A DNA stretch of 57,230 nt from IMG/VR virus record IMGVR_UViG_3300026097_000027, positions 1-57,230 of that record; one strand, 5' to 3'. Each line of letters starts with the position of its first letter. The stretch's first letter is position 1. The notes under the pieces are model-generated. The model searched no databases. It saw nothing but the letters and a program-made list of their open reading frames with translations, and was not told the DNA's origin. Below are positions 26,170 to 46,723 of this stretch, in pieces. The DNA is from a virus (lineage: Duplodnaviria > Caudoviricetes). A program made the translations under genes and the position numbers.

Positions 26170-29100
26170 ATGGCTGAATTTAAGATAAGCAGAATTAGAT
26201 ATACTTGGCGAGGCACATGGTCTACGGCAACAACATATAATAAAGATGATGTTGTTAGGTTTGGCGCCGGCTCTTGGGTTTGTATTAGACAACACACAGC
26301 TACAGCTTTCCAATCAGACTTAACATTTGTACCTGTTGGCGATACAGTTGTACAGCCAGCCTGGGTTAAAATGACCGACGGTTATCAATGGCGAGATGCT
26401 TGGGAAACTGGTGTTCTTTATAATCCTGGTGATATTGTATTATTTGGAGGGGCTGTTTATCTTGCGGAAACGTCTCACACTTCAAGCAGTTTTAATAGTC
26501 AGTTATCCAATTGGACAATTTATGCGCTATCGTCTAAGTGGAATAACATATGGGTATCTGGAACAATATATGGTTTAAATGATATTGTAAGATATCGCGG
26601 AACAGTTTATCGTTGCGTTAGCGGGCACACTGCAGGCAGTGCGCTAGAAGATGATCAAAGTAAATGGCAAATTGTTTATTCTGGTGTAGAATATAGATCT
26701 GCTTGGGCCACAGCAACAAGATATGCTGTTAATGATCTCGTAAAATACGGTGGATCTGTTTATAGATGCAATACTGGACACACTTCTGAATCAACATTTG
26801 ACGATGCTGTTTGGGATATTGAATTTAACGGACAAGAATTTGGCGGAGAGTGGAATTATCTTACAGTTTATCAGATCGGCGATGTTGTAAAACATGGTGG
26901 ATATCTATATTATTCGTTAACTAATAATGTCGACAGTAATCCCGCAAATTATACATTACCATCTGGATCGACAGATTGGACTCTTTTATCAAATGCCGTT
27001 AATCCTCGAGGAAATTGGATTGCTACGGAAACTTATAAAACAGGCGATCTAGTAAGAATTGGCGGAATACTATATGTTGCAAAGCAAGACACAACCGGCG
27101 ATGGTAGTACATTAACTTATCTTGACAGCGGAAGTTGGGAAATTATAGTACCTGGTACAGAATGGAAAAATTACTGGGAAGAAGAAACTGTTTATCTTGT
27201 GGGAGATATTGTATTATTTGACGGCAGTGCATATAGCTGTAACTTTGCTCATACAGCCAGTTTAGAGAATTATCCAGGTGATAATGGAAATGGCATAGAT
27301 TATTGGGATTTAATATTATTGGCTGCTGAAAAAACAGCAATGACCGCTAAAGGCGATTTGATTACATTTGGTCTTTCAAGAAGAAGAACCGGCGACGGTA
27401 GTACTTTTGATGTTACAGATGTTCCAATCGGAAATCCTGAAGAAATTTTAGTTGCCAATGAAAATGATAACTTAAACTATAAAGTTTGGGGTAACAGTAC
27501 TAGATTTTTCTATGTAGCACCGAATGGCGTAGATGACGAACTTGACCCAAATAGAGGAATAAATCCATTTAAACCATATAAAACTATTCGATTTGCTTGT
27601 GAAAGAGCCAATGATGGATTTGATGGAGATACTACAGTTTATGCTCAAGCAGGAGAATACGAAGAAATTTTACCAATAATTGTACCTGTTAAAACTGCGG
27701 TTAGGGGACACGAAGAACGTACTACTACTATTAAACCAAATCAACCTATAGCGGCATTAGCTAATGATATTAGTTATACAATTTCGGCTATTAATAGAGT
27801 GTCTACTATTATTCCAGCTTTAGCATTGGGTAGTACTATAACAAAAACTGTAGGAAATACACAAGAACAAGTATTTTTAACTGATGATGTGTTAATACAA
27901 ATTGGGGATTTTGAAACTATTGAAACTAATGATGTAACATCGTCAGCAGATGCAGCTGTCGAAGTTCAAAGTTTAGCAAGTAATTTAATTAATTACATAA
28001 CATTTTACATCAACGGTTTAGGAACTAATCCTACTTTAACAGGTTCAAACAATGCTACTACTGATGCAGATTTATTAAATTTAGCTAGAATTTTAACAGC
28101 TAACAGAGAGTTTTTAGCAGAAGAGGCCGAGGCAGTAGTTGCATTTACTTTTCCAAATTATTCCTTTGATAGAGAATTATTCAAAACCAATTTTCGTAGA
28201 TATATAGATGCATGGATTTATGATATTACATATCCTGGAACTTATAAAACAATATTAGAAGGACGATATTATCGTAACGCTGTATTGGGGTCTAAAACTG
28301 ATGATATGTTTTATGTTAGAGATGCTAGTGGAGTAAGAGCACTAACAGTTGAAGGTCTTGAAGGAACTTTAAACCCAACAGGCGTTTTTGAGTTATTCCA
28401 AAGACCAACTGGCGGAGCTTTTGTTAGTTTAGATCCAGGTTGGGGTCCAGCTGACGAAAGCACATGGATTTTAACAAGATCGCCTTACATTCAAGGTCTA
28501 GCAACGTTTGGGTATGCTGCAATCGGACAAAAGATCGACGGCGCTTTACACAATGGCGGAAACAAATCTATTGTAAGCAACGATTTTACACAGATTATAT
28601 CAGACGGCGTCGGTGCTTGGGTTTTAAACAACGGTAGAGCAGAGCTTGTAAGTGTATTCACATACTATGCTCAGGTAGGATATCTTGCTACAAACGGTGG
28701 AATTATTCGCTCATTAAATGGTAACTGTTCATACGGTAATTATGGTGCATATGCAACAGGAGTTGACCCAACCGAAATACCAAGATCTGCTGTAGTTGAT
28801 AATCGAAATCAGCAAGCCAGTGTAGTTTCAGCATTTGCTGGTGAAGTTAACGACGAAATTCTTATTTTAGAATACAACAATGCTGGTCAAGGGTATACTG
28901 AAGCTACAACATCATTTACCGGTGCTGGGGTAAATGCAGAAGTAGTCAATGACGAGTTTCGTGATAATGGAGTATTTGATGTAAGATTGATCAATCCATT
29001 AGATTCTGGATTTCCTGGAGGCGGCGGATTTACCCAAGTAGGTAACAATGCTCAGGCAGGCGGCCTTACAACAATTACGCTTGCAACCAATGAAGAAAGT

Positions 29101-31752
29101 ACAGAAGCAGAAATACTCGGACTTCGTGTTATTATTACATCAGGTACAGGTACAGGTCAATATGGATATGTTGACAGTTATAATGACATATCTAAAGTGT
29201 TAAATGTAAGAAGAGAAAGCGACGGCGTCGTAGGATGGGATCATGTTACTCCTGGAACTCCGGTTGCACCGATACTGGATACTTCAACTACATATCGATT
29301 AGAACCGAGACCCATATTTAATGATCCTGGATTTACATCTACTGCGGTAGATTTAGAGGTCGGGACAGTTTGGGCTAATATTGTTTACGGCGAAACTACT
29401 GAAACATATACTAATGTTATTAGTCAAGTAGGCACAGGAGAAGTTGAGGAACAAGACGGTTTAGTTCCTGCAGCTGCAACATTTAATGTTATTAAAAATG
29501 GCAGAGATTATGCTGTAACTATTAATGATGGCGGCGCCGGTTATGCTGTAAGAGATGTAGTGACAGTATCTGGAACCAATTTAGGAGGCAACAGCCCTGA
29601 TAATGATATAACAATAACCGTAACTAGTATTTCAGACGATAGTACAAATAGTATTACTAGCTTTGCGTTTGATGGGAAAGGCAGAACTGGTAGATTTGTA
29701 GCAGTTCCGGCCGTTGGAAGAGTTACCTCGTATTCATTAAACGGCGAAACGTGGACATCAGATTCTGAGACAGGTGGATTACCGAGAAGTGGTAATTGGA
29801 AATGTTTGGCAGCTGGAGATAATAGATTTGTAGCAATACAAAACGGTTCAGATAACGCTGCATATTCACTAGATGGTATTAATTGGTCATTATCTTCTAT
29901 GCCATCTTCGGCTAGTTGGAATGCCGTAACGCACGGTGATGGAGTTTTTGTAGCGGTTGCAGGCGACGCAGATAAAGCAGCAATTAGTATCGATGGCGGT
30001 GAAACTTGGACTGCTTCTACAATTGCAAACTTTGGTGACTCGACATTTAATGAATGGATTGGCATTGCATACGGTAAAAATAAATTTGTTGCTGTAGCAA
30101 ACAGTAATAATATTTCTGTTGAAGGTGTTTACAATTCAGTATCAAATACAATAACCTGGACTCCGCATGTAATGGATGTTATTGACGATTCGACTCAAAG
30201 AGATTGGGTAAATGTTGCTTATGGTAATAACAGATTTGTTGCCGTATCGAGACAAGCTGACGTTGCATATAGTTTAGATGGAGAATTTTGGTATTCTGCG
30301 GAGATGCCCAAACCTGACGAAAGCACTATAATGAGTTGGAATAATATTAAGTATGCGCAAGGAGTTTTCTTTGCAGTATGTGATACTGGAGATAACGCAC
30401 TTATTGGCGGCGACGAAGTGGACGGTCCAACAAAATATTGTGCTACTTCGTATGACGGTATTGTGTGGACTAATAGATTTTTAACATCTGAACTCGAATG
30501 GAACATTTTGGCATTTGGTAATCCAGATATTACACTAGGTGATTCGTCATTGCAGAATAATACAGGAATGTGGGTCGTGTTACCAAACGGAGTTTCTCAA
30601 ACTGCGAACAGAGTATTCACTGGCGCACGAGCATTAGCTAGAATCATTGTTGCTGCAGGCAGAGTCAGCGAAATTAGAATTTGGGAGCCGGGTTCAGGGT
30701 ATGCAGTTTCACCTACATTAACTACAATAGATCCAAACAATACCAGCGAAATATTTGTTGATGCAAGAATTGGGGAAGGAGTATTAGCTCAACCGAGTTG
30801 GATCAATAGAGGACAAGGGTTTAGAACTTCATCTACAGTAGTAACTGTTAACGGTAATGGTTTTGCAGATGTTATTGAAATTGGAAATGAAATAACTTTA
30901 GATGAATTAGAAGTTTACCCAGGACCTGGAACACAGTTAATATTTAACGGAATTAATGAAATTTACACAGTAGTTACAGTTACTGAATTAGGCGAAAAGC
31001 CTAATGGCAAGTTAAGAGCTAGATTTAGTATTGATCCAAGTTGGAACAACAATGAAGGTTTAACGGTTGAACATGGTACGAGCCTAATTTTAAGAGAAAG
31101 ATATAGTCAGGTTCGTGTAACAGGTCATGACTTCCTAGACATCGGCACTGGCAACTTTACAGAGACAAATTATCCAGAAATTTATGCTAGCGGCGCGTTT
31201 TTTACAGGTAGTCCAGAAAATGAAGTTACTGAAACTGATGGAGGGCGAGTATTCTATACAAGTACGGATCAAGATGGTAACTTTAGAACAGGTGAACTAT
31301 TTGCTGTAGAACAAGCAACGGGTATTGTAACTATTAGTGCGCAATTCTTTGACTTAGAAGGTTTAACAGAGTTAAATCTTGGTGGAATCCGAGTAGGTGG
31401 TTCGGGAGTTGTTATTAGAGAATTCTCAACAGATCCTTTGTTTACAGAAGATTCTAACAATGTTGTCCCAACACAGCGAGCTATTAAAGCATTTTTACAA
31501 AATAGATTAAGTGTTGGTGGATCAGAATTATCTACAGCTAGTTTTATTGCTGGTACGGTAAAAGTAGGTCCGGCTGAAATAAGTTCAACTATTGGAAGCT
31601 TTGTTAATTTTTCAAATACACTGGATTTCAGTGCAGGCGGCGAACCACTAGAAAATGACGACGGTACTGGTCAAGGACAGATACAAGGATATATTTTGGG
31701 ACAAAAGTTCTTCTTTAGATCATTTGCTGATGATCCTAACAAGACTAGTTAA
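26170..31752 (+). CDS. Giant tail fibre / receptor-binding protein A (1860 aa)
   Basis: N-terminal CBM5/12-like repeats (W...Y..GD.V.YGG..Y.C...H), pectin-lyase-like beta-helix segments (YVAPNG.D...P.KTI..AC; SNDFTQ..SDG.G) and BNR-like propeller repeats (YG...FVAV; S.DG..W). Confidence 0.75.
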   Translation: MAEFKISRIRYTWRGTWSTATTYNKDDVVRFGAGSWVCIRQHTATAFQSDLTFVPVGDTVVQPAWVKMTDGYQWRDAWETGVLYNPGDIVLFGGAVYLAETSHTSSSFNSQLSNWTIYALSSKWNNIWVSGTIYGLNDIVRYRGTVYRCVSGHTAGSALEDDQSKWQIVYSGVEYRSAWATATRYAVNDLVKYGGSVYRCNTGHTSESTFDDAVWDIEFNGQEFGGEWNYLTVYQIGDVVKHGGYLYYSLTNNVDSNPANYTLPSGSTDWTLLSNAVNPRGNWIATETYKTGDLVRIGGILYVAKQDTTGDGSTLTYLDSGSWEIIVPGTEWKNYWEEETVYLVGDIVLFDGSAYSCNFAHTASLENYPGDNGNGIDYWDLILLAAEKTAMTAKGDLITFGLSRRRTGDGSTFDVTDVPIGNPEEILVANENDNLNYKVWGNSTRFFYVAPNGVDDELDPNRGINPFKPYKTIRFACERANDGFDGDTTVYAQAGEYEEILPIIVPVKTAVRGHEERTTTIKPNQPIAALANDISYTISAINRVSTIIPALALGSTITKTVGNTQEQVFLTDDVLIQIGDFETIETNDVTSSADAAVEVQSLASNLINYITFYINGLGTNPTLTGSNNATTDADLLNLARILTANREFLAEEAEAVVAFTFPNYSFDRELFKTNFRRYIDAWIYDITYPGTYKTILEGRYYRNAVLGSKTDDMFYVRDASGVRALTVEGLEGTLNPTGVFELFQRPTGGAFVSLDPGWGPADESTWILTRSPYIQGLATFGYAAIGQKIDGALHNGGNKSIVSNDFTQIISDGVGAWVLNNGRAELVSVFTYYAQVGYLATNGGIIRSLNGNCSYGNYGAYATGVDPTEIPRSAVVDNRNQQASVVSAFAGEVNDEILILEYNNAGQGYTEATTSFTGAGVNAEVVNDEFRDNGVFDVRLINPLDSGFPGGGGFTQVGNNAQAGGLTTITLATNEESTEAEILGLRVIITSGTGTGQYGYVDSYNDISKVLNVRRESDGVVGWDHVTPGTPVAPILDTSTTYRLEPRPIFNDPGFTSTAVDLEVGTVWANIVYGETTETYTNVISQVGTGEVEEQDGLVPAAATFNVIKNGRDYAVTINDGGAGYAVRDVVTVSGTNLGGNSPDNDITITVTSISDDSTNSITSFAFDGKGRTGRFVAVPAVGRVTSYSLNGETWTSDSETGGLPRSGNWKCLAAGDNRFVAIQNGSDNAAYSLDGINWSLSSMPSSASWNAVTHGDGVFVAVAGDADKAAISIDGGETWTASTIANFGDSTFNEWIGIAYGKNKFVAVANSNNISVEGVYNSVSNTITWTPHVMDVIDDSTQRDWVNVAYGNNRFVAVSRQADVAYSLDGEFWYSAEMPKPDESTIMSWNNIKYAQGVFFAVCDTGDNALIGGDEVDGPTKYCATSYDGIVWTNRFLTSELEWNILAFGNPDITLGDSSLQNNTGMWVVLPNGVSQTANRVFTGARALARIIVAAGRVSEIRIWEPGSGYAVSPTLTTIDPNNTSEIFVDARIGEGVLAQPSWINRGQGFRTSSTVVTVNGNGFADVIEIGNEITLDELEVYPGPGTQLIFNGINEIYTVVTVTELGEKPNGKLRARFSIDPSWNNNEGLTVEHGTSLILRERYSQVRVTGHDFLDIGTGNFTETNYPEIYASGAFFTGSPENEVTETDGGRVFYTSTDQDGNFRTGELFAVEQATGIVTISAQFFDLEGLTELNLGGIRVGGSGVVIREFSTDPLFTEDSNNVVPTQRAIKAFLQNRLSVGGSELSTASFIAGTVKVGPAEISSTIGSFVNFSNTLDFSAGGEPLENDDGTGQGQIQGYILGQKFFFRSFADDPNKTS

Positions 31753-31784: not shown

Positions 31785-34700
31785 ATGGCAGAATTTAGAT
31801 TAGGTAGAATTAGATTTGTATGGAAAGATGAGTGGGCACCGTCTACTACATATTTTGTTGATGACGTTGTTAGATATGCTGGCAAGGTTTATATTTGTCA
31901 AGTAGGTCATACATCAGACACTTCAGACTTTTATGAGGATCTTAATATAGTCCCATCAAATTGGAATTTGATGTCAGATGGCCAATCGTGGAGAAGCGAT
32001 TGGGATGTTGACACATTCTATAGCGATGGCGATATTGTACTCTATGGTGGCATCACTTATATTTGTAATACTCCGCACACATCAAATTCTGATTCTGCCT
32101 TAAGTTTAGAAGCTGACCAAGATAAGTGGGATGTATTTGCTGAAAGTTTTATTTGGCAGGGCAACTGGGCAATTAATACTCAATATAAGAAAAATGATGT
32201 AGTAGCTTATGGCGGAATTACTTATATTTGTCGAGAAACTCATCAAAGTGCATTAAGTGACACTAGCGGTATTGACGGTCTTGCTGAAGATTCTGGAAAG
32301 TGGCAGGTAATCAATCCTGGACTAAAATATAGAGAAACCTGGTCAAGCGGAACTACAAAATACCGAGTAAATGATGTAGTTAAATATGGTGCAGGCTTAT
32401 GGATCTGCACAGTTAATCATGTTCCTGATACAGTTTTCGAAACAGATGTCACTGCTAATCGTTGGAGTCAGTTTGTCGAAGGCTTTGAATTCGAAGACGA
32501 TTGGAGCGATTCTACTGTTTATCAACCTGGCGATATTGTTCGTTATGGCGGTAACCAATATGTTGCCAAAACAAATCATAGTAATACCACTCCTACAACA
32601 CCTGGGCAAAGTGATTGGGATTTATTCTCAGAAGGCTTGAGATTTGAAAACGATTGGAGTATCGAAACTAGTTATAAAGTAGGATCTATTGTAAGAGTAA
32701 ACGGATATTCTTATCTAGCTACAATCGATTCTCCGTCTATCGGCACATTTGCAAGCGCAACTGCTGATGCAACTAATAGAATTACTGTAACGAGCTCAGC
32801 CGGAATGGTTGTAGGTATGGCAATTCGTTTTACTGGCACATCGTTTGGCGATATAAATCCAGGTGCAACTTATTATGTAAAACAAGTAGTAAGTGCTACA
32901 GAAATTATAATTTCTAATGATGAAGATCTTGTTAGTACCACAGATGTTACAACAGATACTGGAGGAATGACTGTATTTGCTTCAGCTCATCCTGCAAATG
33001 TAAATTTTTATCAAAGACTTGTTAGTGGAATTGCATGGCAAGGCGAATGGCAGGATGATGTAGAATACGAAATTGGAGATGCAATTAGATTTGGTGCTAA
33101 TGCATATATTTGTATTAAAAAGCATCGTTCAGAGCAGGATGACGGATCGTCTATAGTAGCTGAAGGTGGCGGCGCAGATAACAGCAGACCAGATCAAGAT
33201 GTTACAGGAACATATTGGAATGTAGTTGCAATTGGTAGTGAAATATCAGTTCTTACAACACAAGGAGATCTTGTATATTATAGTGGTTCTGGACCTACTA
33301 GACTGCCTATTGGAACAGAAGGTCAAGTCTTAAGAGTTAGTGATGATTCAATTCCTGAATGGGTTAGTTTAGGAGCTGTAGAAAATGTTTACTATGTTGC
33401 TACTAACGGGGTAGATCAACCTGCTCCTATAGGTGGATTAACTAAAGACAAGCCATGGAAAACAATTCGATATGCTTGTGAACAAGTAGAAAAAGGTGTT
33501 AAAAACCCTAATGCTCGCACATTGATAGAACTTAACAGAGTTTTTATCCAACGAGAAGTTACTGAATATATCCAAAATCAAATTGCTAATGCCACACCTG
33601 GCAGTATCTGGGAAAATTTTGATTACGAGGATTACAAGTGCGAACGAGATGTTGGTTTTGTGCTAGATGCATTAGTGTATGATATGACTCATGGCGGCAA
33701 TGTAAAAACTAGAGGAGCTGCAAACTCACTAGTAGGCGGCATTGTCGAAGACACTCCAGGCGCATATCCTGGTTTAGCTGGAGAGGAAGCCCAGTCATTA
33801 GCAGCTTATAATTATATGCTGACATTAATTTCTAATGTATTAGATCAAGAAGCTCCTAGTGTTAATTATCAAAATACAAATGGAGATAACTCTACAGCTA
33901 TTGTTACTCAATATTTTGATGCTTCTATTACAGCAGAAGCAACAGCACTTCCAAGAATACAAACATTAACAACTATTATAACAAATGCAATAGACGATGG
34001 CGATACTAGCAGAATTCCTGCTAGAAATTTTGATGAAGTTGCAATTATGGTCAGCACTGGTAAGTATCGAGAAGTATTGCCGATTATTGTTCCAGAAGGT
34101 GTATGTATACTAGGTGATGAGCTTAGAGGAACAAATGTTGGGCCTGCAATTAGTTCTGTCGATAAAACAGATGCCAAGTATAGTATTGGTGCATTAGGTA
34201 GATTAGAATCTATCGTAAACGACATTGTAGTAGGTAACGAAGTTACAGAAAGCGTCGGAAATACCGAAGTTCAAAGTAGAGAATGGCCGTATGCTGATAC
34301 ATTAGAGCAAGATGCCGTTACACAACTTGTAAGATCGATCCAACAAAATATTGATTTTAGAATTGGTACTACACATATGGCATCTAGTACCGACCCAGTC
34401 GGATACAACGATTCATATCTTGTAGGGTATGGCGATGCTAGAAAATTAGTTGTAGAAAACAAAGAGTTTCTAAAAGAAGAAGTTATTGCTTTTATAGCCG
34501 CAAACTACCCAGATCTAAAGTACAGCAGAACAAAATGTAGACAAGATGTTGGGTATATCGTTGATGCTGTTGCTTATGATTTAACTTATGGCGGATATAG
34601 TCAAAGTTTGAATGCAGGGTTAGCATACTATGAAGGATATGCAGGGCAGAGATTGATTAGCACAAGTGAACTTAGTGCTACAGTTGCCGCATACGACTTC

Positions 34701-37700
34701 TTAAAATCAAGACTACAAAGTGTTATTGGCGCGATATTATTACCAACACCACTACAAACCGCAGTTCCTCAATTTGTAGATACTGCTGGATCTGCAGCCA
34801 GTATCACATTTACAAACGGCGCAATAGATATTATTAGAAACCTTGTAAATGGCGGGACTGACAACTGGCCTAGTGTTACTATTACTACTATTGCTAGTAA
34901 TGTGGTTACAACATCTGCTACCCATAACTTACAGGTCGGCGATTTAATTGTTGTTAGAAGCACAGAAAACGGATTCGTTAAAAATACGAGATATTGGATT
35001 GCAAGTACTCCTGCTGGTAACACATTTACAGTTTCTGAGACATTTGGTGGAAGCGCATATACTTTAACTAATGGCACTGGATTATCTATTACAGCTAACA
35101 AGATTGATTATCCAGCAGTTGCCGACGGTGTTGGGTCCACTACTGCTCTTATTACGGCGGCAGAAACATTGAGTGCAGCTCGTGAAACTATTATCGAAAA
35201 TGTCATTGATGACTTGAATGAAGTAGCCTACCATATAGATTTTGTTGTAAGATTAAATGGATTAACCAACGACGATTTTATAGTCTATGTAGGTAAAAAT
35301 GACATTGCTCACACATATGTTAGCGGCGGTGTAGTAACCAAAGCAGATGATACAGATGTAAATATCACTAACTTTGTCTATAATGAATCTACAGGGTACG
35401 CAACAGTGACCACATCTACAGATCACGGTTTAGAAGCTGGTGACGTTGTAGATATTACAAATATCACAGTATCCTGTACTTCATCAGGCGAAACAAGAGA
35501 ATTTGTATATCCAAGTGCTACTAGCACTAAAGGTAATAGAACTAAAATCTTATACATACAAAACAAGTGTATCAGAGATTTAAGATTAATTCTTGAAGCT
35601 GTAAGTTTTGACTTTATGCTTGATAGTAACTTCCAAAGCATTAAAGCTGGGTATTCTTACTTGAGATCGTCAGCAGCCGAAGTGTTTACTTTAAATCAAA
35701 AGCAAATTACTAGAGATGCTTTGACAAATGCTAAAACTGAAGCGTTAGCGAATGTTGGCGGAGATACAACTGCACAGGCTAGAATTGAATCATTAATGAC
35801 CATTATTGATGATATTATCTACACTGGCTCGCTCGAAGGTGACAACTGTAGTACCGGTATTCGTAACAGACAATATGCTGTTCTGCAACTAGAAAGAAAC
35901 AGAGACTTTATTGTTTCAGAAATTGATAACTGGATTGCGAACACATATACTTCGACAGTAACTGTTACACAAGATTCTACAGATTACATCAATGTAAGCG
36001 ACACTAGCTGGATGAGTAGAAACACAGCAATTCGCTTTACAGGAGCCACGACTAGTGGAATCCAAACAGGTGTAACATACTATGTTCAAAATGTTATTGA
36101 CAGCGAAACTATTACAATTGCTGAGACAAGAAATGCACAATCACCTTTAGATATATCAGCCGGCGGAGACTTCGACGTCGAAACAGTAGGGTCATTTACT
36201 GTAAGTTTATATTACAATAATGCATTATGTTTAAGAGATGTTAACACTTATATTGATGCTCTTAAATACGATATTAAGTTCCCAGGTAACTATAAGTCAT
36301 TGTATGCTGCAAGATACTATGCTAATGCAGTAGTAGGATCACTTGAAGAAGATTGCTATTATCTACGAAATGCAACTGGAGTTCGTAACCAAACACTGGT
36401 AGAACTAACTGGTGACTTACTACCTGAAAATGAATATGGTACAAGTCGTGTAAGTGCTGGAGCATACTGCTCGTTAGATCCAGGTTGGGGCCCAGATGAT
36501 TATAGAGGATGGATCTTAACTCGTTCGCCGTATGTTCAAGGTGTAACCACATTCGGCACAGCGGCAATTGGTCAAAAAATTGATGGAAGTTTGCACAATG
36601 GCGGTAATGATAGTATTGTATCAAATGACTTTACGCAAGTAATCAGCGACGGTATAGGTGCTTGGGTATCAAATAACGGAAGAGCAGAACTTGTGTCTGT
36701 ATTTACATATTATGCACACATTGGTTACTTATCAGAATCAGGTGGGCGTATTCGTGGTACTAATGGTAACTGTTCGTATGGAGACTTTGGCGCAGTAGCA
36801 GAAGGATTTGATGCAGACGAAATACCAAATACTGCGGTAATTGACAATAAGAGTGGATTTAATGCAGTTATTGGGTCCGCAAATACAAACGGCGACGATA
36901 TTTTCAATTTTGAATTTGACCATGCTGGTAACGATTACACCGAAGTAGCATACACTATTACAGGTGGCGGCGTAAATGTTGATATTGAAGCAGACGAGTT
37001 CCGTGATGATGCAGTGTTCCAGGTTAGATTGATTGATCTTGGAGACGATTCGAGTGGGCAGTTCGGTGGTGATGGGTATTTAACAAATGCTAACACAGCA
37101 CAAGGTGGTACAACATCAAGTATAACATTGGCTGCGGTAGACCAAGAAGTAAGTTCTGCATATGTTGGTATGAAAGTCTTTGTTGACGGCGGAGCTGGTC
37201 AAGGACAATTTGGTATCGTTAGTACATATAATGCAGGTACAAAACTAGCCAATGTTGTAAGAGAAAGTGACGGCCAATCTGGATGGGATCATGTAGTTCC
37301 AGGAACAACAATTGTAAGTCCAAATGCAAGTTCGACATATGTAATGGAGCCTGCAATTAGTTTTACAAGTCCAGGATTCCAAGCAGACAGTTTAGAATTA
37401 CCACAAGTAGGAGACTGGGTTGATGCAACATTCGGTGAAACTGCCGCAACCTATACTGGATTATCACCTACAAGTTATACAGGAATTGGAACTGGCGCTA
37501 CATTTGATGTAGTTCGTAACGGTTCGAAGTATATTATTACATTAACAGACGGTGGACTAGATTATTCTAGACTAGAAACATTTAAGATTCTAGGTACAAG
37601 TTTAGGCGGAGAAACACCTACTAACGATATTACATTTACGATTACAGCAATTAACAGTGTAACCGGTGAAATTCTTGAATATGATCAAGAAGGTTTCGGA

Positions 37701-39629
37701 TTAAACGGCCTATTTGTTGCAAATAAATCAAACAGCGGAAACGGTATATTTACTAGCACCGACGGTGAAAATTGGTCCACTCGTATCTTACCATTACCTA
37801 CCACTAACTGGACTGGCGTCGCATCAGGATTAATTGATGACGGATCTTCAGATCTAAAAGTATCAAGATTTGTTGCGGTTGCTACTGGCGGAACAAGAGC
37901 AGCATGGAGTGCAGACGGTATTAACTGGTTCTCATCAAGTTTACCAGTAAGTGCATCTTGGACAAGAGTAGTTTTCGGTAACGGTCGTTTTGTTGCAATA
38001 GCTAGCGATAGTACCACAGTTGCAATATCTTTAGACGGCCAAGTATGGGATGTTACAGGTACATTAAATAGCACAGGGTTTGTTGATGTTACATATGGTA
38101 TGGGTAAATTTGTTGCTGTTAAAACAGGTAATACTGATGCTGTAGAATATTCAGATGACGGTGGTGAAACTTGGACACAAGAAGACTTACCTGCTAACAG
38201 TACATGGACCAGCGTAACATGGGGTCGTGGAGCATTCGTAGCAGTTGCTAGCGATAGCAATAATGGTGCTATCAGCATCGACGGCGAAACTTGGACAGCA
38301 ATGACTGTCGGATCTCCAGATTCTAATGATCCTGCAGGTTATCAAAGAGTTAGATATGGACAAGGATTGTTCATAGCTACAGCTACTTTAAATGGACAGA
38401 CTGGATATCAGTTTGTAATGAAGTCTGAAAACGGATTATATTGGACTGACGAAAGTATACCAACAGCCGGCGGAATACAAAACGATGGTTATAATGCTAT
38501 TGTATTTGGTAATCCTCAAAAAACAGGATATTGGTTAGCGTTCCAGAACGATAATGGCGATCATGCTGTTAAGATTAGAACAGGCGCAACTACACGAGCA
38601 AGAGCTTTTGTAGCACAAACCAAGATCTTTGTAATTAGATTAACAGAACCAGGTTCAGGATATGATACTGCTCCGACTATGACAGTTACTGATCCAAATA
38701 ACACATTTGAACTACCGGTAGAAGTTAGAGTAGGCAAAGGAGCATTAGCTACGCCTAGTTTTGTAGATAGAGGACAAGAATACACAAGTGCTAATGCTGA
38801 GGTTGATGACGATAATAGTAACGGATTTGCTGATTTCTATCAACCAGGAGCATTCATATTTGTTAGAAGATTAAGCCAGCGTCCGGTACCCGGATCAAAT
38901 ATTGTATTTGGTCACTTACCAAATCGAACATTTAAACTTGTAAATGTGTTAACCTTCTTAGGACAGAACGACGGTGCATATACAGCATTCTTCCAAGTAA
39001 GTCCAGAATTAACAATTCAAGAAGCTCCTGAAAATGGCACTAGTCTTACAACTAGAATTAGATTTAGTCAAGTACGACTAACAGGACACGACTTCCTAGA
39101 CATTGGTACTGGTAGCTTTGAAGAAACAAACTATCCAGGAACACCGACACAAGACCCAATCCCGGCTCAAGAAACTAAAGAAGGAAACGGTGGTCGTGTA
39201 TTCTATACAAGTACGGACCAGGATGGTAACTTCCGAGTTGGTGATTTGTTCACAATTGAACAGTCAACTGGTGTTGCAACATTGAATGCTGATGCATTTA
39301 ATATTGCAGGTCTACAAGAACTATCGTTGGGTGAAGTTACACTAGGCGGTGGATCAGCAAGTATTGATGAGTTTAGTTCAGACCCATTCTTTACAGCTGA
39401 CTCGGATAGTGTTGTACCAACACAGCGAGCAATTAGAGCATTCATTGCGTCACAGATTGGCGGCGGTGGTGCATCACTTAATGTGAATAGTGTAACGGCT
39501 GGATCGGTATTTATAAATACTAATCAAATACGAACAGTCGACGGATCAGTTATTAACATGCGAGGTAAGTTTAACTTCAAAGGCCCTGTAACTGGATACC
39601 CAATAGCGTGGAATTACTTTTTAGTATAA
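31785..39629 (+). CDS. Giant tail fibre / receptor-binding protein B (2614 aa), paralog of 26170-31752
   Basis: Same architecture as protein A and long shared blocks (SLDPGWGP.D...WILTRSPY.QG; GHDFLDIGTG.F.ETNYP; GGRVFYTSTDQDGNFR.G.LF..EQ.TG), plus extra internal helical repeats. Confidence 0.75.
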   Translation: MAEFRLGRIRFVWKDEWAPSTTYFVDDVVRYAGKVYICQVGHTSDTSDFYEDLNIVPSNWNLMSDGQSWRSDWDVDTFYSDGDIVLYGGITYICNTPHTSNSDSALSLEADQDKWDVFAESFIWQGNWAINTQYKKNDVVAYGGITYICRETHQSALSDTSGIDGLAEDSGKWQVINPGLKYRETWSSGTTKYRVNDVVKYGAGLWICTVNHVPDTVFETDVTANRWSQFVEGFEFEDDWSDSTVYQPGDIVRYGGNQYVAKTNHSNTTPTTPGQSDWDLFSEGLRFENDWSIETSYKVGSIVRVNGYSYLATIDSPSIGTFASATADATNRITVTSSAGMVVGMAIRFTGTSFGDINPGATYYVKQVVSATEIIISNDEDLVSTTDVTTDTGGMTVFASAHPANVNFYQRLVSGIAWQGEWQDDVEYEIGDAIRFGANAYICIKKHRSEQDDGSSIVAEGGGADNSRPDQDVTGTYWNVVAIGSEISVLTTQGDLVYYSGSGPTRLPIGTEGQVLRVSDDSIPEWVSLGAVENVYYVATNGVDQPAPIGGLTKDKPWKTIRYACEQVEKGVKNPNARTLIELNRVFIQREVTEYIQNQIANATPGSIWENFDYEDYKCERDVGFVLDALVYDMTHGGNVKTRGAANSLVGGIVEDTPGAYPGLAGEEAQSLAAYNYMLTLISNVLDQEAPSVNYQNTNGDNSTAIVTQYFDASITAEATALPRIQTLTTIITNAIDDGDTSRIPARNFDEVAIMVSTGKYREVLPIIVPEGVCILGDELRGTNVGPAISSVDKTDAKYSIGALGRLESIVNDIVVGNEVTESVGNTEVQSREWPYADTLEQDAVTQLVRSIQQNIDFRIGTTHMASSTDPVGYNDSYLVGYGDARKLVVENKEFLKEEVIAFIAANYPDLKYSRTKCRQDVGYIVDAVAYDLTYGGYSQSLNAGLAYYEGYAGQRLISTSELSATVAAYDFLKSRLQSVIGAILLPTPLQTAVPQFVDTAGSAASITFTNGAIDIIRNLVNGGTDNWPSVTITTIASNVVTTSATHNLQVGDLIVVRSTENGFVKNTRYWIASTPAGNTFTVSETFGGSAYTLTNGTGLSITANKIDYPAVADGVGSTTALITAAETLSAARETIIENVIDDLNEVAYHIDFVVRLNGLTNDDFIVYVGKNDIAHTYVSGGVVTKADDTDVNITNFVYNESTGYATVTTSTDHGLEAGDVVDITNITVSCTSSGETREFVYPSATSTKGNRTKILYIQNKCIRDLRLILEAVSFDFMLDSNFQSIKAGYSYLRSSAAEVFTLNQKQITRDALTNAKTEALANVGGDTTAQARIESLMTIIDDIIYTGSLEGDNCSTGIRNRQYAVLQLERNRDFIVSEIDNWIANTYTSTVTVTQDSTDYINVSDTSWMSRNTAIRFTGATTSGIQTGVTYYVQNVIDSETITIAETRNAQSPLDISAGGDFDVETVGSFTVSLYYNNALCLRDVNTYIDALKYDIKFPGNYKSLYAARYYANAVVGSLEEDCYYLRNATGVRNQTLVELTGDLLPENEYGTSRVSAGAYCSLDPGWGPDDYRGWILTRSPYVQGVTTFGTAAIGQKIDGSLHNGGNDSIVSNDFTQVISDGIGAWVSNNGRAELVSVFTYYAHIGYLSESGGRIRGTNGNCSYGDFGAVAEGFDADEIPNTAVIDNKSGFNAVIGSANTNGDDIFNFEFDHAGNDYTEVAYTITGGGVNVDIEADEFRDDAVFQVRLIDLGDDSSGQFGGDGYLTNANTAQGGTTSSITLAAVDQEVSSAYVGMKVFVDGGAGQGQFGIVSTYNAGTKLANVVRESDGQSGWDHVVPGTTIVSPNASSTYVMEPAISFTSPGFQADSLELPQVGDWVDATFGETAATYTGLSPTSYTGIGTGATFDVVRNGSKYIITLTDGGLDYSRLETFKILGTSLGGETPTNDITFTITAINSVTGEILEYDQEGFGLNGLFVANKSNSGNGIFTSTDGENWSTRILPLPTTNWTGVASGLIDDGSSDLKVSRFVAVATGGTRAAWSADGINWFSSSLPVSASWTRVVFGNGRFVAIASDSTTVAISLDGQVWDVTGTLNSTGFVDVTYGMGKFVAVKTGNTDAVEYSDDGGETWTQEDLPANSTWTSVTWGRGAFVAVASDSNNGAISIDGETWTAMTVGSPDSNDPAGYQRVRYGQGLFIATATLNGQTGYQFVMKSENGLYWTDESIPTAGGIQNDGYNAIVFGNPQKTGYWLAFQNDNGDHAVKIRTGATTRARAFVAQTKIFVIRLTEPGSGYDTAPTMTVTDPNNTFELPVEVRVGKGALATPSFVDRGQEYTSANAEVDDDNSNGFADFYQPGAFIFVRRLSQRPVPGSNIVFGHLPNRTFKLVNVLTFLGQNDGAYTAFFQVSPELTIQEAPENGTSLTTRIRFSQVRLTGHDFLDIGTGSFEETNYPGTPTQDPIPAQETKEGNGGRVFYTSTDQDGNFRVGDLFTIEQSTGVATLNADAFNIAGLQELSLGEVTLGGGSASIDEFSSDPFFTADSDSVVPTQRAIRAFIASQIGGGGASLNVNSVTAGSVFINTNQIRTVDGSVINMRGKFNFKGPVTGYPIAWNYFLV

Positions 39630-39991: not shown

Positions 39992-40864
39992 ATGGGAAGA
40001 AGAGTTTCGAGCGGTATTAATCCAGGCGGTTTTGGATTTAACTTTTTCGATGATAACACATTAAGATCTGTAGAAGTAGATTCTAACTTGAGGTTAGATG
40101 CAGACGGCACAGGTATTATTCAATCTTTAAAAGATTTTGAAATTTTAGCCGCAAGTAATTTAAGATTTGCAGACAGTGATAGTTCAAACTACATTGGATT
40201 TAAAGCACCTGATACCGTGACTGCCGATTTAATTTGGACCCTGCCAGCAACAGACGGCACCGAAGCACAGCTATTATCTACAGACGGCAGCGGAACATTA
40301 AGCTGGGCAAATCCAGGTGTAACAATTACAGATAACAACGACGATGCTGCCACACATTATCTTACTATTACTCCGACCTCATCTGGCGGTATCAGTGATG
40401 CTCGTATATCCACAACAAAATTATCATTCCAGCCAAGCACAGGATCGTTATCGTTAGGTGGCGGCACTGCATCAACATCGACAACTACTGGAACTATAAT
40501 AGTTACAGGAGGAATTGGATTAAGTGGTGCATTATATGCAGGCGCCGATGTAGTTGCCTATGCATCATCAGATATAAGATTAAAAGAAAATGTTTCAAAG
40601 ATCGATAACAGTTTAGAAAAACTTTCAAAAATTTCAGGATATCAATACTACTGGAATAGTGTTGCAAAAGAAATGTATCCAGAAAGAACAGAGCTCGATG
40701 TAGGAGTTATTGCTCAAGAAGTGCAAGAGGCTCTACCTTCGGCAGTAGTTGAAAGAGAAGATGGGTATCTTGCTGTTAATTATGATAAAATAATTCCGTT
40801 ATTGATAGAATCTATAAAAATTCTAAAAGAAGAATTAGATACAATTAAGGGAGGAGCAGAATAA
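39992..40864 (+). CDS. Tail fibre protein with C-terminal peptidase S74 intramolecular chaperone
   Basis: SSDIRLKENV...L.KISG..Y.W...GVIAQEV...P.AV...YLAVNYDKIIPLLIESIK.L coiled coil. Confidence 0.85.
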   Translation: MGRRVSSGINPGGFGFNFFDDNTLRSVEVDSNLRLDADGTGIIQSLKDFEILAASNLRFADSDSSNYIGFKAPDTVTADLIWTLPATDGTEAQLLSTDGSGTLSWANPGVTITDNNDDAATHYLTITPTSSGGISDARISTTKLSFQPSTGSLSLGGGTASTSTTTGTIIVTGGIGLSGALYAGADVVAYASSDIRLKENVSKIDNSLEKLSKISGYQYYWNSVAKEMYPERTELDVGVIAQEVQEALPSAVVEREDGYLAVNYDKIIPLLIESIKILKEELDTIKGGAE

Positions 40865-41691
40865 TGCCAGTACAACTATCAAACCAAGGCATCGTTTACG
40901 CTAATAACCAACATCAATGTAAGATTGCCGAAGGTTATGAATTGTATGTTTATAATACAAATTGGTGGTCTCCTTGTAACGGAGGTAGATGTTGTCAGTG
41001 GACTGTTCCAGACGGAACTACATCGATAAAGTTTGAAATATTAAGCGGTGGAGGTCCTGGTGGCTCATCAGGTGGCGATTTTGACTACGGAATTGGTGGC
41101 CAAGGTGGTAATTATGCCGTAAAAACCTTACAAAAATCAGTACACGGATTCACAGATGGCAGTACATACACTGTGTGTGCTGCTGGATCATCAGCTTGTA
41201 GTTGTTGCTGTAGATGTAATGTAAATAATCGACACGGTTGTAGAAGTTATGTTACGGGTACAGGACTAAGTAACTTTTGCACAGTCGGTGGTATGGGCGG
41301 TCCGACCATTTGGGATAAGATGTCAAATTGTTATAACTGTCACATTGGTAATGTACAGTGTAATAGAGGATTGTATAACAGCAGCTGGCAAGCAAATGCC
41401 TGTAACGAAGCAGGACGCGGAGCTGATATGGTATTTAGAGGCACAGCAGGGTCAATGAACAGACAGTACAACTGTTGTGCGGACCACTTTTCTGTAGCAG
41501 GTTCCCCTTCAGGGCCATTTAGTGCATCGCACGGAGTGGGAGGTAAGCACCCTTGTGTGGGTAACTTGGCTTGTTGTTCAGCACACGCGGCTTTCCCAGG
41601 TGGCGGCGGTGCAGGTCACTCAACTATGTCACGGAATGCATGTTGGGGCAGTTTTGGTGCTGGCGGCTTAGTAAGAATTACTTATAGTTAA
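40864..41691 (+). CDS. Cys/Gly-rich adhesin-like fibre-tip protein, copy 1
   Basis: Gly-rich motifs (WTVP.G.TSI.FE..SGGGPGG; GGQGGNY..K; PGGGGAG; GAGGLVRITY) and 22 Cys. Directly follows the S74 fibre, like T2-type gp37-gp38. Confidence 0.65.
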   Translation: MPVQLSNQGIVYANNQHQCKIAEGYELYVYNTNWWSPCNGGRCCQWTVPDGTTSIKFEILSGGGPGGSSGGDFDYGIGGQGGNYAVKTLQKSVHGFTDGSTYTVCAAGSSACSCCCRCNVNNRHGCRSYVTGTGLSNFCTVGGMGGPTIWDKMSNCYNCHIGNVQCNRGLYNSSWQANACNEAGRGADMVFRGTAGSMNRQYNCCADHFSVAGSPSGPFSASHGVGGKHPCVGNLACCSAHAAFPGGGGAGHSTMSRNACWGSFGAGGLVRITYS

Positions 41692-41702: not shown

Positions 41703-42419
41703 ATGGAAAATATAACTAAAACACTAACTTATAGTATACCAGACGAACTGTATTCTACCGAAACTAAGTTAGGAAAGACAAGCACTCAGGTATATAATGG
41801 CCCTTCTGAGATAATATGTTGGGTCAATAAAGAAACTGGGTATTTAGAAGAAACTCACAGTCCGGACGAGGAACCTGATTGCCCATTACCATTGCATCTT
41901 AGAAGAGAAGTTCTAAGTGCAAATACTGACGAAAACATCATAAAAATTGCACTGCTATGGGGCGGCATAGAAGCACCAAAAGTTTACGAAGTTAAAGTTG
42001 GGCCTGAGGATCAACCAAATGCTATACTTCCTGATCCAAGCCATATTGCAGAAGTGTATGATGAATATGCATTATACAATGATTATAAAGCACCGTTAAA
42101 GTTTGTTGAATTTGATAGAGACAGATCATGGAATTTCCTTAGAGAGGAAAGAAATCATAGATTATATATGAGTGACGGTAAGCTTGCAGAAGACATGCCT
42201 GCATCATTAAAGCAACAATGGAGTGATTATAGACAAAAACTTAGAAACATGCCAAATGAATGGGACGGAGTTCCTGGATATTTGGTAAGGTTCCCTATAG
42301 CACCGGATGAAGGTGTTGATCCAAACTTTAATGACCCAGAAGTACCAGTAATTATGATTGCTGATAGAACTGAGGAAGATAATGATGCAATCGGACAATT
42401 CCCAAAGGGTGTTGAATAA
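41703..42419 (+). CDS. Tail fibre assembly chaperone-like protein
   Basis: C-terminal W..LR.ERN..L..SD......D.P......W..YRQ.LR..P motif of phage tail assembly chaperone domains. Confidence 0.7.
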   Translation: MENITKTLTYSIPDELYSTETKLGKTSTQVYNGPSEIICWVNKETGYLEETHSPDEEPDCPLPLHLRREVLSANTDENIIKIALLWGGIEAPKVYEVKVGPEDQPNAILPDPSHIAEVYDEYALYNDYKAPLKFVEFDRDRSWNFLREERNHRLYMSDGKLAEDMPASLKQQWSDYRQKLRNMPNEWDGVPGYLVRFPIAPDEGVDPNFNDPEVPVIMIADRTEEDNDAIGQFPKGVE

Positions 42420-43246
42420 TGCCAGTACAACTATCAAACCAAGGTATCATTTTTAGTAATAACCAACATCAATGTAAAATTCCTGAAGCTTTTGAACTAT
42501 ATGTTTATGATACAGATTGGTGGTCTCCTTGTAACGGAGGTAGATGTTGCCAGTGGACTGTTCCAAACGGAATCACATCGATAAAGTTTGAAATATTAAG
42601 CGGTGGCGGTCCTGGTGGCTCATCAGGCGGCGACAACGATTTTGGCATTGGTGGCCAAGGTGGTAATTATGCCGTAAAAACTTTACAAAAATCAGTACAC
42701 GGGTTTAACGACGGCGACACATACACTGTGTGTGCTGCTGGATCATCAGCTTGTAGTTGTTGCTGTCGGTGTAATGTAAATAATCGACATGGGTGTAGAA
42801 GTTATGTTACGGGTACAGGACTAAGTAACTTTTGCGCAACTGGCGGCATGGGTGGTCCGACTATTTGGGACAAAGTGTCAAACTGTTATAACTGTCACAT
42901 TGGTAATGTCCAGTGTAATAGAGGAATATATAATAATACTTGGCAAGCAAATGCCTGTAACGAAGCAGGATATGGAGCTGATATGGTATTTAGAGGCACA
43001 GCAGGTTCAATGAACAGACAGTACAACTGTTGTGCAGACCACTTCTCAGTCGCAGGTTCTCCTTCAGGGCCATTTTTTGCATCACATGGAGTGGGAGGTA
43101 AGCATCCTTGCACAGGTAACTTGGCTTGTTGTTCAGCACACGCGGCCTTCCCTGGTGGTGGCGGCGCAGGTCATGTAACATCGTCACGAAACGCATGTTG
43201 GGGTTCCTTTGGCGCTGGCGGCTTAGTAAGAATTACTTACAGGTAA
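42419..43246 (+). CDS. Cys/Gly-rich adhesin-like fibre-tip protein, copy 2
   Basis: 275 aa, differing from copy 1 at 26 positions by manual count (~90% identity). Confidence 0.65.
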   Translation: MPVQLSNQGIIFSNNQHQCKIPEAFELYVYDTDWWSPCNGGRCCQWTVPNGITSIKFEILSGGGPGGSSGGDNDFGIGGQGGNYAVKTLQKSVHGFNDGDTYTVCAAGSSACSCCCRCNVNNRHGCRSYVTGTGLSNFCATGGMGGPTIWDKVSNCYNCHIGNVQCNRGIYNNTWQANACNEAGYGADMVFRGTAGSMNRQYNCCADHFSVAGSPSGPFFASHGVGGKHPCTGNLACCSAHAAFPGGGGAGHVTSSRNACWGSFGAGGLVRITYR

Positions 43247-43329: not shown

Positions 43330-44271
43330 ATGATATTAATGAAAAAAGCATTTTTTATAAACGGTGGCGCAGGTAGAGTTCTCTGCGCCATCCCCGCCCT
43401 TGAACACCACGTACAACATATAGACCCAACAGCAGTTATCGTTGTCGAAGGCTGGATAGATCTATACTTAACTAGTAAAATATTAACATCTAATGTATTT
43501 CCTGCTAACGATCCAAATCTTTTTGAAAAATTAAAAGACAGAGAGATTATTACTCCTGAACCTTATAAACTTAATGCGTATTTTACTCAAAGATGTAATC
43601 TAGTTCAAGCCTTTGATATGTTGATTAATTATGATGTTCCACCCGAAACTATTCCAAAAACAAAAGAATATAATAATCTTTTTATTGGTAAAAAAGATAT
43701 CGCAACAGGAGAGGAATTAGTTAACGAGGCAAGAAGGCATTTTAAAAAAGAAAAGGTAATAATATTTCAGCCATTTGGATCTACTGCTACAATGCACGGC
43801 GGAGTTATTGTTGATGAAAGTGGCAGATCGTTCGAAGTTAGCGATATTATAACAATACTTGAAGAGTTGAATAAAGACTATGCCGTCATTCTAATGAGCG
43901 AATTAAAAATACCCACAGAAAAAGCACTTAATGTAATGCTTCCGGAACAAGCTAGTTTATTACAATGGACTGGCATTATTAATGCTGCTGATTATTTCCT
44001 AGGATGTGACTCGGTAGGTCAGCATGTTGTGCATGCTCTAAAAAAACCAGGCACAGTAGTCATAGGAAGTACATTCCCTGAAAATATTTCGTATCCTGAT
44101 AGTAGCACTCTTAAAATAATAGATAACGGTGAAGGGCAAAGATTGTATTCTCCATTAAGAGTTGTAGTGGATGTTAGAATTGATAGACACAATGAAAATC
44201 TAATGAAACTCAGCAAAGATACAATTAATAAAATTATTGAGCAGATAAGAACTACCTTAGGAAAAAAATAA
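43330..44271 (+). CDS. Glycosyltransferase, GT9 (ADP-heptose heptosyltransferase)-like
   Basis: N-terminal GG.GR.LC.IPAL, IIFQPFGS, and W.GII..ADYFLGCDSVGQHV.HAL.KP..V..GST GT-B motif. Confidence 0.7.
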   Translation: MILMKKAFFINGGAGRVLCAIPALEHHVQHIDPTAVIVVEGWIDLYLTSKILTSNVFPANDPNLFEKLKDREIITPEPYKLNAYFTQRCNLVQAFDMLINYDVPPETIPKTKEYNNLFIGKKDIATGEELVNEARRHFKKEKVIIFQPFGSTATMHGGVIVDESGRSFEVSDIITILEELNKDYAVILMSELKIPTEKALNVMLPEQASLLQWTGIINAADYFLGCDSVGQHVVHALKKPGTVVIGSTFPENISYPDSSTLKIIDNGEGQRLYSPLRVVVDVRIDRHNENLMKLSKDTINKIIEQIRTTLGKK

Positions 44272-46096: not shown

Positions 46097-46723
46097 ATGG
46101 ACTCTCAGGGACAAATTTTTACATTATTTCCTACCCCTCTTTATACATACAAACTAGAAAACACGGAATATACAGATGTACAAGCCGAACTACAGACTGT
46201 AGTTGACGAACTCTATACGAAAGATCAGTGGGGACAAAACCCAAATTGGAATAGTTCTTCGCAGTATCTATCTAATAAAGGAAATTTTATTGAAAATATT
46301 TTAAAGTCTAAAGATATGAAAGCTGTTACGCAATTTATTATGCATCATTGCTACAATTATATGGCAGCGATGAATGTTAAGCCAAATTATAAAACAGCAA
46401 TCGAAACTTCATGGCTTTCACTAACCAAGACTGGACTTTCTTCTCACATTCACGATCACGGAACTAGCCATATTAGCGGAGTGTATTGGTTTAAAACAAA
46501 CGGTAAGGATGGTGACATAGTTTTTAGGAATTCGCATAAGGCATTAAAATGTAATCCAATCGGAAGCTCGTTTGCACACGAGAATTCATTCCCTCCGGAG
46601 CAGGGTAGACTACTGTTGTTTCCTGGATTCTTGGATCATAGCGTTAATGAAAATACAACTAACGAGGACCGTATTAGTTTGTCTTTTAATATCTTGTTAG
46701 AAACTGGTATCACTGTAAATTAG
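46097..46723 (+). CDS. 2OG-Fe(II) oxygenase (TIGR02466-like)
   Basis: LFPTP start, HDH..SHISGVYW, LFPGFLDHSV, RISLSFN. Confidence 0.8.
   Translation: MDSQGQIFTLFPTPLYTYKLENTEYTDVQAELQTVVDELYTKDQWGQNPNWNSSSQYLSNKGNFIENILKSKDMKAVTQFIMHHCYNYMAAMNVKPNYKTAIETSWLSLTKTGLSSHIHDHGTSHISGVYWFKTNGKDGDIVFRNSHKALKCNPIGSSFAHENSFPPEQGRLLLFPGFLDHSVNENTTNEDRISLSFNILLETGITVN

Follow-up and report, generated by a model that had tools for sequence, protein, structure and literature searches.

The locus considered here raises the question of why a viral tail fibre should carry the chromophore-attachment motif of the phycobiliproteins, which otherwise serve as antenna subunits. It lies in IMG/VR virus record IMGVR_UViG_3300026097_000027 (Duplodnaviria; Caudoviricetes), of which positions 1 to 57,230 were analysed and are called the window below, and it consists of two adjacent open reading frames (ORFs) on the plus strand, fibre A and fibre B. 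The initial annotation, made from the sequence alone, had proposed that fibre B contains four helical repeats related to phycobiliproteins, each with the cysteine of the bilin-attachment site, that fibre A contains one copy without this cysteine, and that the repeats might bind a tetrapyrrole or might instead represent a purely structural reuse of the fold. The modules are phycobiliprotein-derived, globin-fold domains that have been multiplied in the fibre proteins of cyanomyoviruses and whose chromophore-site residues are under coupled purifying selection. Whether the motif cysteine carries a bilin is a question with about even odds.

A globin-like module related to the phycobiliproteins

The module is a domain of ~140 residues that belongs to a many-copy family. 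A search with repeat 2 of fibre B as the query leads to 69 longer proteins with bit scores of up to 567, which indicates many copies per protein, and iterated local profiles delimit 381 copies in 71 proteins. Profile A1, built from 37 domain copies, matches 1592 proteins at E<=0.001 among 1.84 billion representatives, 685 of them at E<=1e-30, and the copy number reaches 37 in one protein of 6382 residues. The N..FI..E helix that the initial annotation had noticed ahead of the cysteine helix is part of this domain profile, with N16 being almost invariant.

The structural comparison suggested at the outset, with AlphaFold2 and Foldseek, was carried out on module 2 and yields a globin-like fold with phycobiliproteins as the top matches. 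The model of fibre B residues 876-1022, computed without templates, has a predicted local distance difference test score (pLDDT) of 94.9 and a predicted template modelling score (pTM) of 0.89 and shows helices A, B, E, F', F, G, and H of the globin-like fold. The 12 top rows of the Foldseek search with this model are all phycoerythrins or cryptophyte biliproteins, with template modelling scores of 0.65-0.72. The sensor globins (globin-coupled sensors and the N-domain of RsbR) and the bilin domains of photocobilins score below every phycobiliprotein, and no match to these families is found at the sequence level, either in Pfam or with A1 against PDB sequences. In contrast to haem and sensor globins, the phage domain has no conserved histidine and hence lacks the proximal histidine by which a haem globin is recognised.

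Sequence comparisons lead to the same family. Among the 13 matches of A1 to PDB sequences at E<=10, 12 are phycocyanin alpha chains (best E, 0.013), and the motif cysteine falls on Cys84; the homologue P0014, searched alone, matches phycoerythrocyanin beta with an E value of 0.0015 over ~90 residues. Alignment of A1 with CpcA/CpcB of Acaryochloris marina by hhalign gives a probability of 83.8% (E, 7.8e-6; 55 columns) and places the cysteine, arginine, and aspartate of the module on C84, R86, and D87. The description of the phycocyanin alpha site in the initial annotation, checked on CpcA of the same organism, proved right in substance. The phycobiliprotein family PF00502 of Pfam, which has a curated gathering threshold of 22.2 bits, is found above this cutoff in four of seven homologous proteins scanned (26.3-39.7 bits), with a fifth at 21.9 bits, and several homologues bore a precomputed PF00502 label. 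A phmmer search of fibre B residues 539-1705 against PDB sequences returned no match at E<=1, and the search of the ESM Atlas gave no usable match. The proposal of a phycobiliprotein-related domain with a globin fold is thus borne out by Foldseek, by the profile and single-sequence matches to PDB sequences, by hhalign, and, for Pfam, in homologues of the window proteins. Homology between the module and the phycobiliproteins is taken as established, as is their place as its nearest branch of the globin-like superfold.

The alpha and beta subunits of the phycobiliproteins (PF00502: CpcA/B, CpeA/B, ApcA/B, and PecB) have in common with the phage module the Cys-x-Arg-Asp of helix E and the G-Y...Y.L..GG that follows. 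Structural alignments show 14-21% identity, with the whole 147-residue model aligning to residues 29-184 (phycoerythrin) or 31-159 of the subunits. Helix A is where the profile begins, and in tandem arrays, the last helix of the preceding module aligns weakly to helix Y. The phage module has an additional invariant aspartate at position +14 from the cysteine and a GGN motif, and a second cysteine of the 153 type is not general in it. Phycobiliproteins are antenna subunits of 160-180 residues, whereas the phage modules occur 1 to 37 at a time, in tandem or nested, in virion proteins of 1000-6000 residues; given this context of a virion fibre, an antenna role in (alpha-beta)3 discs is unlikely. 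The bilin-binding (PB) domain of ApcE, the core-membrane linker of the phycobilisome, is likewise of phycobiliprotein type, lies in a large polypeptide with several domains, and is interrupted by a loop insertion. In contrast to the phage fibres, ApcE belongs to the cellular antenna and has a single domain of this kind. ApcE attaches its bilin without a lyase, which provides a precedent for lyase-free loading, and its attachment cysteine is at a different position.

Conservation and coupled loss at the attachment site

The attachment site was evaluated in the 1879 copies, from 219 proteins, that cover the cysteine helix. The cysteine is kept in 1765 (93.9%), the arginine at +2 in 1766 (94.0%), the aspartate at +3 in 1833 (97.6%), the second aspartate, at +14, in 1867 (99.4%), and the tyrosine at +30 in 1826 (97.2%), and 1714 copies keep cysteine, arginine, and aspartate together. 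The attachment-type cysteine motif pointed out in the initial annotation is, together with its arginine and aspartate, under strong and coupled conservation in this set. Cysteine makes up 0.68% of the residues in these proteins, and 51.5% of all their cysteines stand in the motif column. No second cysteine column rises above 110 of 2048 copies, so that the sample has no general site of the Cys153 type, and no histidine is conserved, with the highest histidine column reaching 180 of 2048 copies.

Loss of the cysteine is coupled to loss of the arginine (odds ratio, 40), the aspartate (odds ratio, 1150), the tyrosine at +30 (odds ratio, 58), and Thr88, and 45 of the 46 copies lacking the aspartate also lack the cysteine. 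No such coupling is seen with the glycine, the asparagine, the tyrosine at +17, or the near-invariant Gln117. The 114 copies without cysteine fall into 84 clusters at 50% identity, and the loss hence does not go back to one inherited event. In 31 of the 84 clusters arginine and aspartate are both gone, and in 41 of them phenylalanine, tyrosine, tryptophan, or leucine takes the place of the cysteine. The copy in fibre A, in which cysteine is replaced by phenylalanine, arginine by threonine, and aspartate by asparagine, belongs to the kind with an aromatic residue for the cysteine and without arginine and aspartate. As read from the alignments, the pattern is that of a ligand site under selection, whatever the ligand.

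Cyanophage distribution and the case for a bilin

A tblastn search of 50,697 phage records finds the domain of the window in 125 records, all from Synechococcus, Prochlorococcus, or "Cyanophage" isolates, plus one marine virus. A homologue with 12 copies matches 350 records, 340 of which are named Synechococcus, Cyanophage, or Prochlorococcus; the sole match in a Pelagibacter phage covers the C-terminal fibre tip only. All named structure matches in BFVD come from phages of Synechococcus or from uncultured ones. Isolated phages with the domain are exclusively cyanophages.

Genes for bilin synthesis and attachment were compared with the domain in the whole records of 17 cyanomyoviruses, picked irrespective of the domain, and of the podovirus P-SSP7. 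Domain matches number 12 in S-RSM4, 9 in S-PM2, and 7 in Syn1; 4 each in P-HM1, P-HM2, and S-ShM2; 3 each in S-SM1, P-RSM4, Syn33, S-SSM5, P-SSM4, and Syn9; and 2 each in Syn19 and P-SSM7. None are found in P-SSM2, S-SM2, S-SSM7, and P-SSP7. The domain is thus present in 14 of the 17 cyanomyoviruses and CpeT (PF06206) in 12, all 12 of which carry the domain; S-ShM2 and P-SSM7 have the domain and no CpeT match, and none of the three myoviruses without the domain has CpeT. Fisher's test of this association, computed by hand and uncorrected for phylogeny, gives a p of ~0.015. In S-PM2, Syn1, and S-RSM4, which represent three genera, cpeT lies 0.7-1.5 kb upstream of the giant repeat gene on the same strand, a gp12-type gene then follows the repeat gene, and the giant genes adjoining cpeT have 4, 5, and 7 cysteine-bearing copies, respectively. 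No CpeT (PF06206) was found in the window's own 57-kb record, which is a fragment, and its absence there says little. Many cyanomyoviruses carry cpeT, a bilin lyase gene, and the available text of PMC10452541 and PMC2984593 describes its role by conjecture only. As an observation on one of these genomes, 16 tRNA features are annotated inside the coding sequence for a 3779-residue protein of S-PM2 (RefSeq NC_006820.1, 168556-173383) under the same locus tag; the stretch is an open frame with domain matches, which looks like an annotation oddity.

A further correspondence concerns adsorption. According to the available text of PMC6628666, P-HM1 and P-HM2 fail to adsorb without light, the adsorption of S-PM2 depends on light and is independent of host photosynthesis, and darkness does not prevent the adsorption of P-SSM2 and P-SSP7. 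As to the mechanism, the authors do not decide between receptors of the host and tail fibres of the phage. All three light-dependent phages carry the domain, and neither of the two dark-adsorbing phages does. This match is a lead rather than a test.

The best explanation, which is given an even chance, is that the modules are phycobiliprotein-derived fibre parts most of which are loaded with a bilin on their cysteine. Multiplication in cyanomyoviruses would have placed the modules, as insertions, in loops of giant proteins of the tail-fibre or baseplate type. During assembly inside the infected cyanobacterium, most modules would receive a bilin on the motif cysteine through a thioether bond, with the bilin supplied by the host or by phage enzymes where these are present. 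Attachment might be autocatalytic, as in ApcE, or aided by a lyase, possibly the phage CpeT. The result would be a fibre with chromophores in a row. In a more speculative step, light absorbed by the bilin could alter the fibre and gate adsorption, which would explain the light-dependent adsorption of some cyanomyoviruses. Phytochromes and the GAF domains of cyanobacteriochromes, in which a thioether-linked bilin drives a conformational change, may be a functional analogue of such a fibre; their fold is GAF and not globin-like, and homology is neither detected nor claimed. The conservation of the site, the restriction to cyanophages, the association and synteny with cpeT, and the adsorption match in five phages support a role in bilin binding or light response indirectly. 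The most far-reaching form of the explanation, an array of thioether-linked, CpeT-loaded bilin photoreceptors on the virion of a phage that adsorbs only in the light, is considered unlikely.

A number of observations weigh against bilin-loaded modules of phycobiliprotein origin, some of them on the side of kinship. No copy of the window reaches PF00502, either on the whole record at E<=10 or with repeat 2 alone; on the whole fibres A and B, Pfam reports CBM_5_12 alone and no PF00502 at E<=1, and only 3 of 37 single domains match the family at E<=1. The sequence similarity is concentrated on one helix, the 55 columns aligned by hhalign, and the best E value of the Foldseek search is 2.5e-3, with no match at E<=0.001. 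The N-terminal X/Y hairpin, through which the alpha and beta subunits of phycobiliproteins make contact, is absent from the phage module. At the site itself, module 2 has glutamine at the arginine position (C-R-Q-D), with an arginine one residue earlier, and module 1 has leucine and serine at the positions of the co-varying Tyr72 and Thr88. The expectation that phage bilin reductase and haem oxygenase would track the domain is not borne out, as these enzymes occur in 7 and 4 of the 18 records, respectively, neither follows the domain, and both are encoded by P-SSM2 and S-SSM7, which lack it. The distance between cpeT and the repeat gene is large in the nine remaining CpeT-positive phages, and T-type lyases such as CpeT are described in the available text of PMC10452541 as serving the Cys153-type site, not Cys84. 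The adsorption match covers five phages only, of which two are of the same species and one is a podovirus, and it includes 3 of the 14 domain-positive phages.

The main rival to bilin loading is structural reuse without a chromophore, in which the captured fold is a compact, stable helical spacer or "bead" and cysteine, arginine, aspartate, and tyrosine stabilise either the fold itself or an interface of modules or chains; its probability is put somewhat below even. The position of the window copies below PF00502 and the bilin-synthesis genes that do not track the domain fit this rival, as does the behaviour of the modules as loop insertion units, present 1 to 37 times per protein in the manner of a length-setting spacer, with half-modules and permuted orders among them. 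No report of pigmented cyanophage particles was met in literature searches that were not aimed directly at that question. A lone cysteine kept at this level in cysteine-poor proteins is, however, unusual for a purely structural residue. It is lost jointly with exactly the two bilin-contacting residues, repeatedly across the clusters, and is often replaced by a bulky aromatic residue as if a cavity were being filled. Moreover, the chromophore helix is the part still recognisable after deep divergence, and the domain is restricted to phages of hosts that make bilins.

Two further readings fare worse. The conserved site could serve another role, as an inter-chain disulfide, an axial metal site, a thioester-type cross-link, or a site for another small ligand. 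With one conserved cysteine per module and fibres that are usually trimers, three cysteines could meet on the axis, and the near-invariant glutamine at profile position 117 had raised the idea of a Cys-Gln thioester. The thioester was rejected since Gln117 does not co-vary with the cysteine (odds ratio, 1.3; p, 0.46), unlike Arg, Asp, Tyr72, and Thr88, and haem binding was rejected, and a metal site is disfavoured, for want of a conserved histidine. The cysteine aligns with the thioether Cys84 of phycobiliproteins and with no known cross-link motif, and a role of this kind appears improbable. Least probable by far is a chance resemblance, in which the module is an unrelated helical bundle and the similarity of KC.RD..GY...Y.L..GG is convergent or accidental. 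Taken singly, the statistics are modest (an E of 0.013 for the PDB profile and of 2.5e-3 for Foldseek, and a probability of 84% in hhalign), and middling structural scores are common for helical folds, but independent lines converge on one family, among them the PDB profile matches, PF00502 in the homologues, and the single-sequence match to phycoerythrocyanin beta, so that hardly any weight is left for coincidence.

Fibre architecture, gene neighbourhood, and significance

The coordinates of the modules and of neighbouring features are given in Table 1. All four cysteine motifs of fibre B lie at the codons given in the initial annotation, and the copy of fibre A without cysteine, FKTNFRRYIDAWIYDITYPG, is confirmed at residue 671. 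C-x-R-D is present in modules 1, 3, and 4 of fibre B, and all 22 orthologues aligned over fibre B residues 1140-1530 keep the cysteine, arginine, and aspartate of modules 3 and 4 unchanged. Module 1 occupies a loop that is short in fibre A. The beta domains said to be inserted in two of the copies were traced with a model of residues 1140-1530 (mean pLDDT, 66.7; pTM, 0.37), which was used for secondary structure alone and shows helices at 1358-1387, strands at 1389-1475, and the cysteine helix at 1479-1498. The insertion is supported for copy 4, in which the profile match is split by ~82 residues and strands appear in the model. For copy 3, a strand domain directly before the cysteine helix is seen in the model, and the upstream helix has no profile match; this helix (~1119-1147) lies mostly outside the modelled piece and is placed from its motif and sequence. 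The A1 profile match to module 3 covers fibre B residues 1253-1318 with 31 bits. Module 4 has no G/H half, and the chain continues into a Gly/Asn-rich stretch that, judged by its sequence, looks beta-helix-like.

Two C-terminal half-copies were found beyond the list of the initial annotation, at residues 790-854 of fibre B and 530-570 of fibre A. Fibres A and B share an order in which the last A/B/E half-module (1362-1515 in fibre B; 632-703 in fibre A) comes after a G/H half-module (790-854 in fibre B; 530-570 in fibre A). The arrangement suggests that the modules are loop insertions, with one module circularly permuted or wrapped around others, and the early G/H half and the late A/B/E half are suspected to associate spatially, forming one permuted or nested module.

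Table 1. Fibre genes, phycobiliprotein-like modules, and neighbouring features in the window
Feature	Position	Strand	Description
Fibre A	26170..31752	+	ORF, 1860 residues; N-terminal CBM_5_12 repeats; one degenerate, split phycobiliprotein-like module
Fibre A, G/H half	27757..27879	+	Residues 530-570; A1 profile positions 81-120, 5.4 bits, weak; precedes the N-terminal half
Fibre A, N-terminal half (A/B, E, F')	28063..28278	+	Residues 632-703; 34.3 bits, profile positions 3-74
Fibre B	31785..39629	+	ORF, 2614 residues; six N-terminal CBM_5_12 repeats, then four Cys-bearing phycobiliprotein-like modules
Module 1	33498..33992	+	Residues 572-736, complete; 124.2 bits; Cys619 (codon 33639), Arg621, Asp622
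Isolated G/H half-module	34152..34346	+	Fibre B residues 790-854; 15.1 bits, profile positions 78-141; lacks a Cys helix of its own
Module 2	34416..34847	+	Residues 878-1021, complete; 167.3 bits; Cys918 (codon 34536), Asp921
Presumed A/B helix of module 3	35139..35234	+	Residues ~1119-1150; no profile match; only the end (1141-1147) helical in the model
Beta-strand domain before the Cys helix of module 3	35274..35510	+	Residues 1164-1242; from the model, block pLDDT ~53-80
Module 3, helices E to H	35541..35828	+	Residues 1253-1348; Cys1262 (codon 35568), Arg1264, Asp1265
Module 4, A/B helix	35868..35957	+	Residues 1362-1391; 11.6 bits; helical in the model
Beta-strand domain inside module 4	35949..36209	+	Residues 1389-1475; strands in the model, block pLDDT 76-92; split profile match
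Module 4, Cys helix and F'	36204..36329	+	Residues 1474-1515; 30.6 bits; Cys1482 (codon 36228), Arg1484, Asp1485
Asp-box/BNR-like repeats of fibre B	~37700-38700		S-x-D-G-x-x-W; fibre B residues ~1980-2300
Paralogue of unknown function	40864-41691		275 residues; phrog_4205, E ~1e-54
Paralogue of unknown function	42419-43246		275 residues; phrog_4205, E ~1e-54
Carbamoyltransferase	44271-46094		Directly downstream of the fibre genes
2OG-Fe(II) oxygenase paralogue	46097-46723
2OG-Fe(II) oxygenase paralogue	47468-48082
2OG-Fe(II) oxygenase paralogue	48082-48639
2OG-Fe(II) oxygenase paralogue	48658-49323
2OG-Fe(II) oxygenase paralogue	50811-51425	-

By its gene content, the 57-kb record is assigned as a fragment of a T4-like cyanomyovirus. 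The window codes for a late sigma factor, gp46/47-type nuclease subunits, portal, prohead protease, and major head protein, fibre and baseplate-connector genes, a carbamoyltransferase, and six paralogous 2-oxoglutarate- and Fe(II)-dependent (2OG-Fe(II)) oxygenases. A blastn search of positions 33300-36500 against phage records gave zero matches. The two fibres are related, with residues 610-1849 of fibre A alignable to residues 1430-2613 of fibre B. In fibre B, small beta domains alternate with the phycobiliprotein-like modules, and Asp-box-like repeats and a fibre-type C terminus follow downstream. Both fibres match PHROG tail-fibre families, among others phrog_9851 (E, 4e-169 and 5e-162); the portal, protease, major head protein, fibre, and baseplate-connector genes around them form a late structural module, and relatives in isolated phages carry the annotation of virion structural or short tail fibre protein. 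Judged by these matches and neighbours, fibres A and B classify as tail-fibre or baseplate-type structural proteins.

Several observations concern the remainder of the fibres and their surroundings. Many multi-copy homologues (P0005, P0008, P0014, and others) open with an Mtd_N domain (PF18454; residues 1-45), and one homologue of this type matches the N terminus of a phage hyaluronidase, followed by collagen-like repeats; fibre "stems" of different kinds thus appear to carry the same modules. The Asp-box/BNR-like repeats also occur in fibre A at residues ~1190-1450, and they hint at a beta-propeller in the C-terminal half of each fibre; in Pfam, a weak BNR match (E, 0.22) is obtained in fibre A only. 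Between the two phrog_4205 paralogues lies an ORF of 238 residues with a weak match to tail-fibre assembly proteins. Besides the oxygenase paralogues of Table 1, there are related ORFs, and in S-PM2 and Syn1 a 2OG-Fe(II) oxygenase is also found between cpeT and the giant repeat gene; these enzymes may modify fibre proteins. The CheckV completeness of 16% at 57 kb would imply a genome of ~350 kb, about twice the size of the cyanomyoviruses compared.

In the literature searched, from which subscription journals are mostly absent, phycobiliprotein-like domains in phage structural proteins are not described. A bilin photoreceptor array, if it existed, would have no known precedent as a photoreceptor of a virion and would explain both the light-dependent adsorption of cyanomyoviruses and the puzzling phage cpeT gene. 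The modules, being small and single-chain, may also find use as fluorescent tags, provided that they bind bilins. Even without pigment, the fold of a host photosynthesis protein has been captured and turned into a modular building block of the virion, found in 1592 representatives with up to 37 copies. With a large, cyanophage-restricted family of fibre modules that has a bilin-attachment site as a concrete candidate molecule for both, two old puzzles of cyanophage biology, light-dependent adsorption and the role of cpeT, become directly testable.

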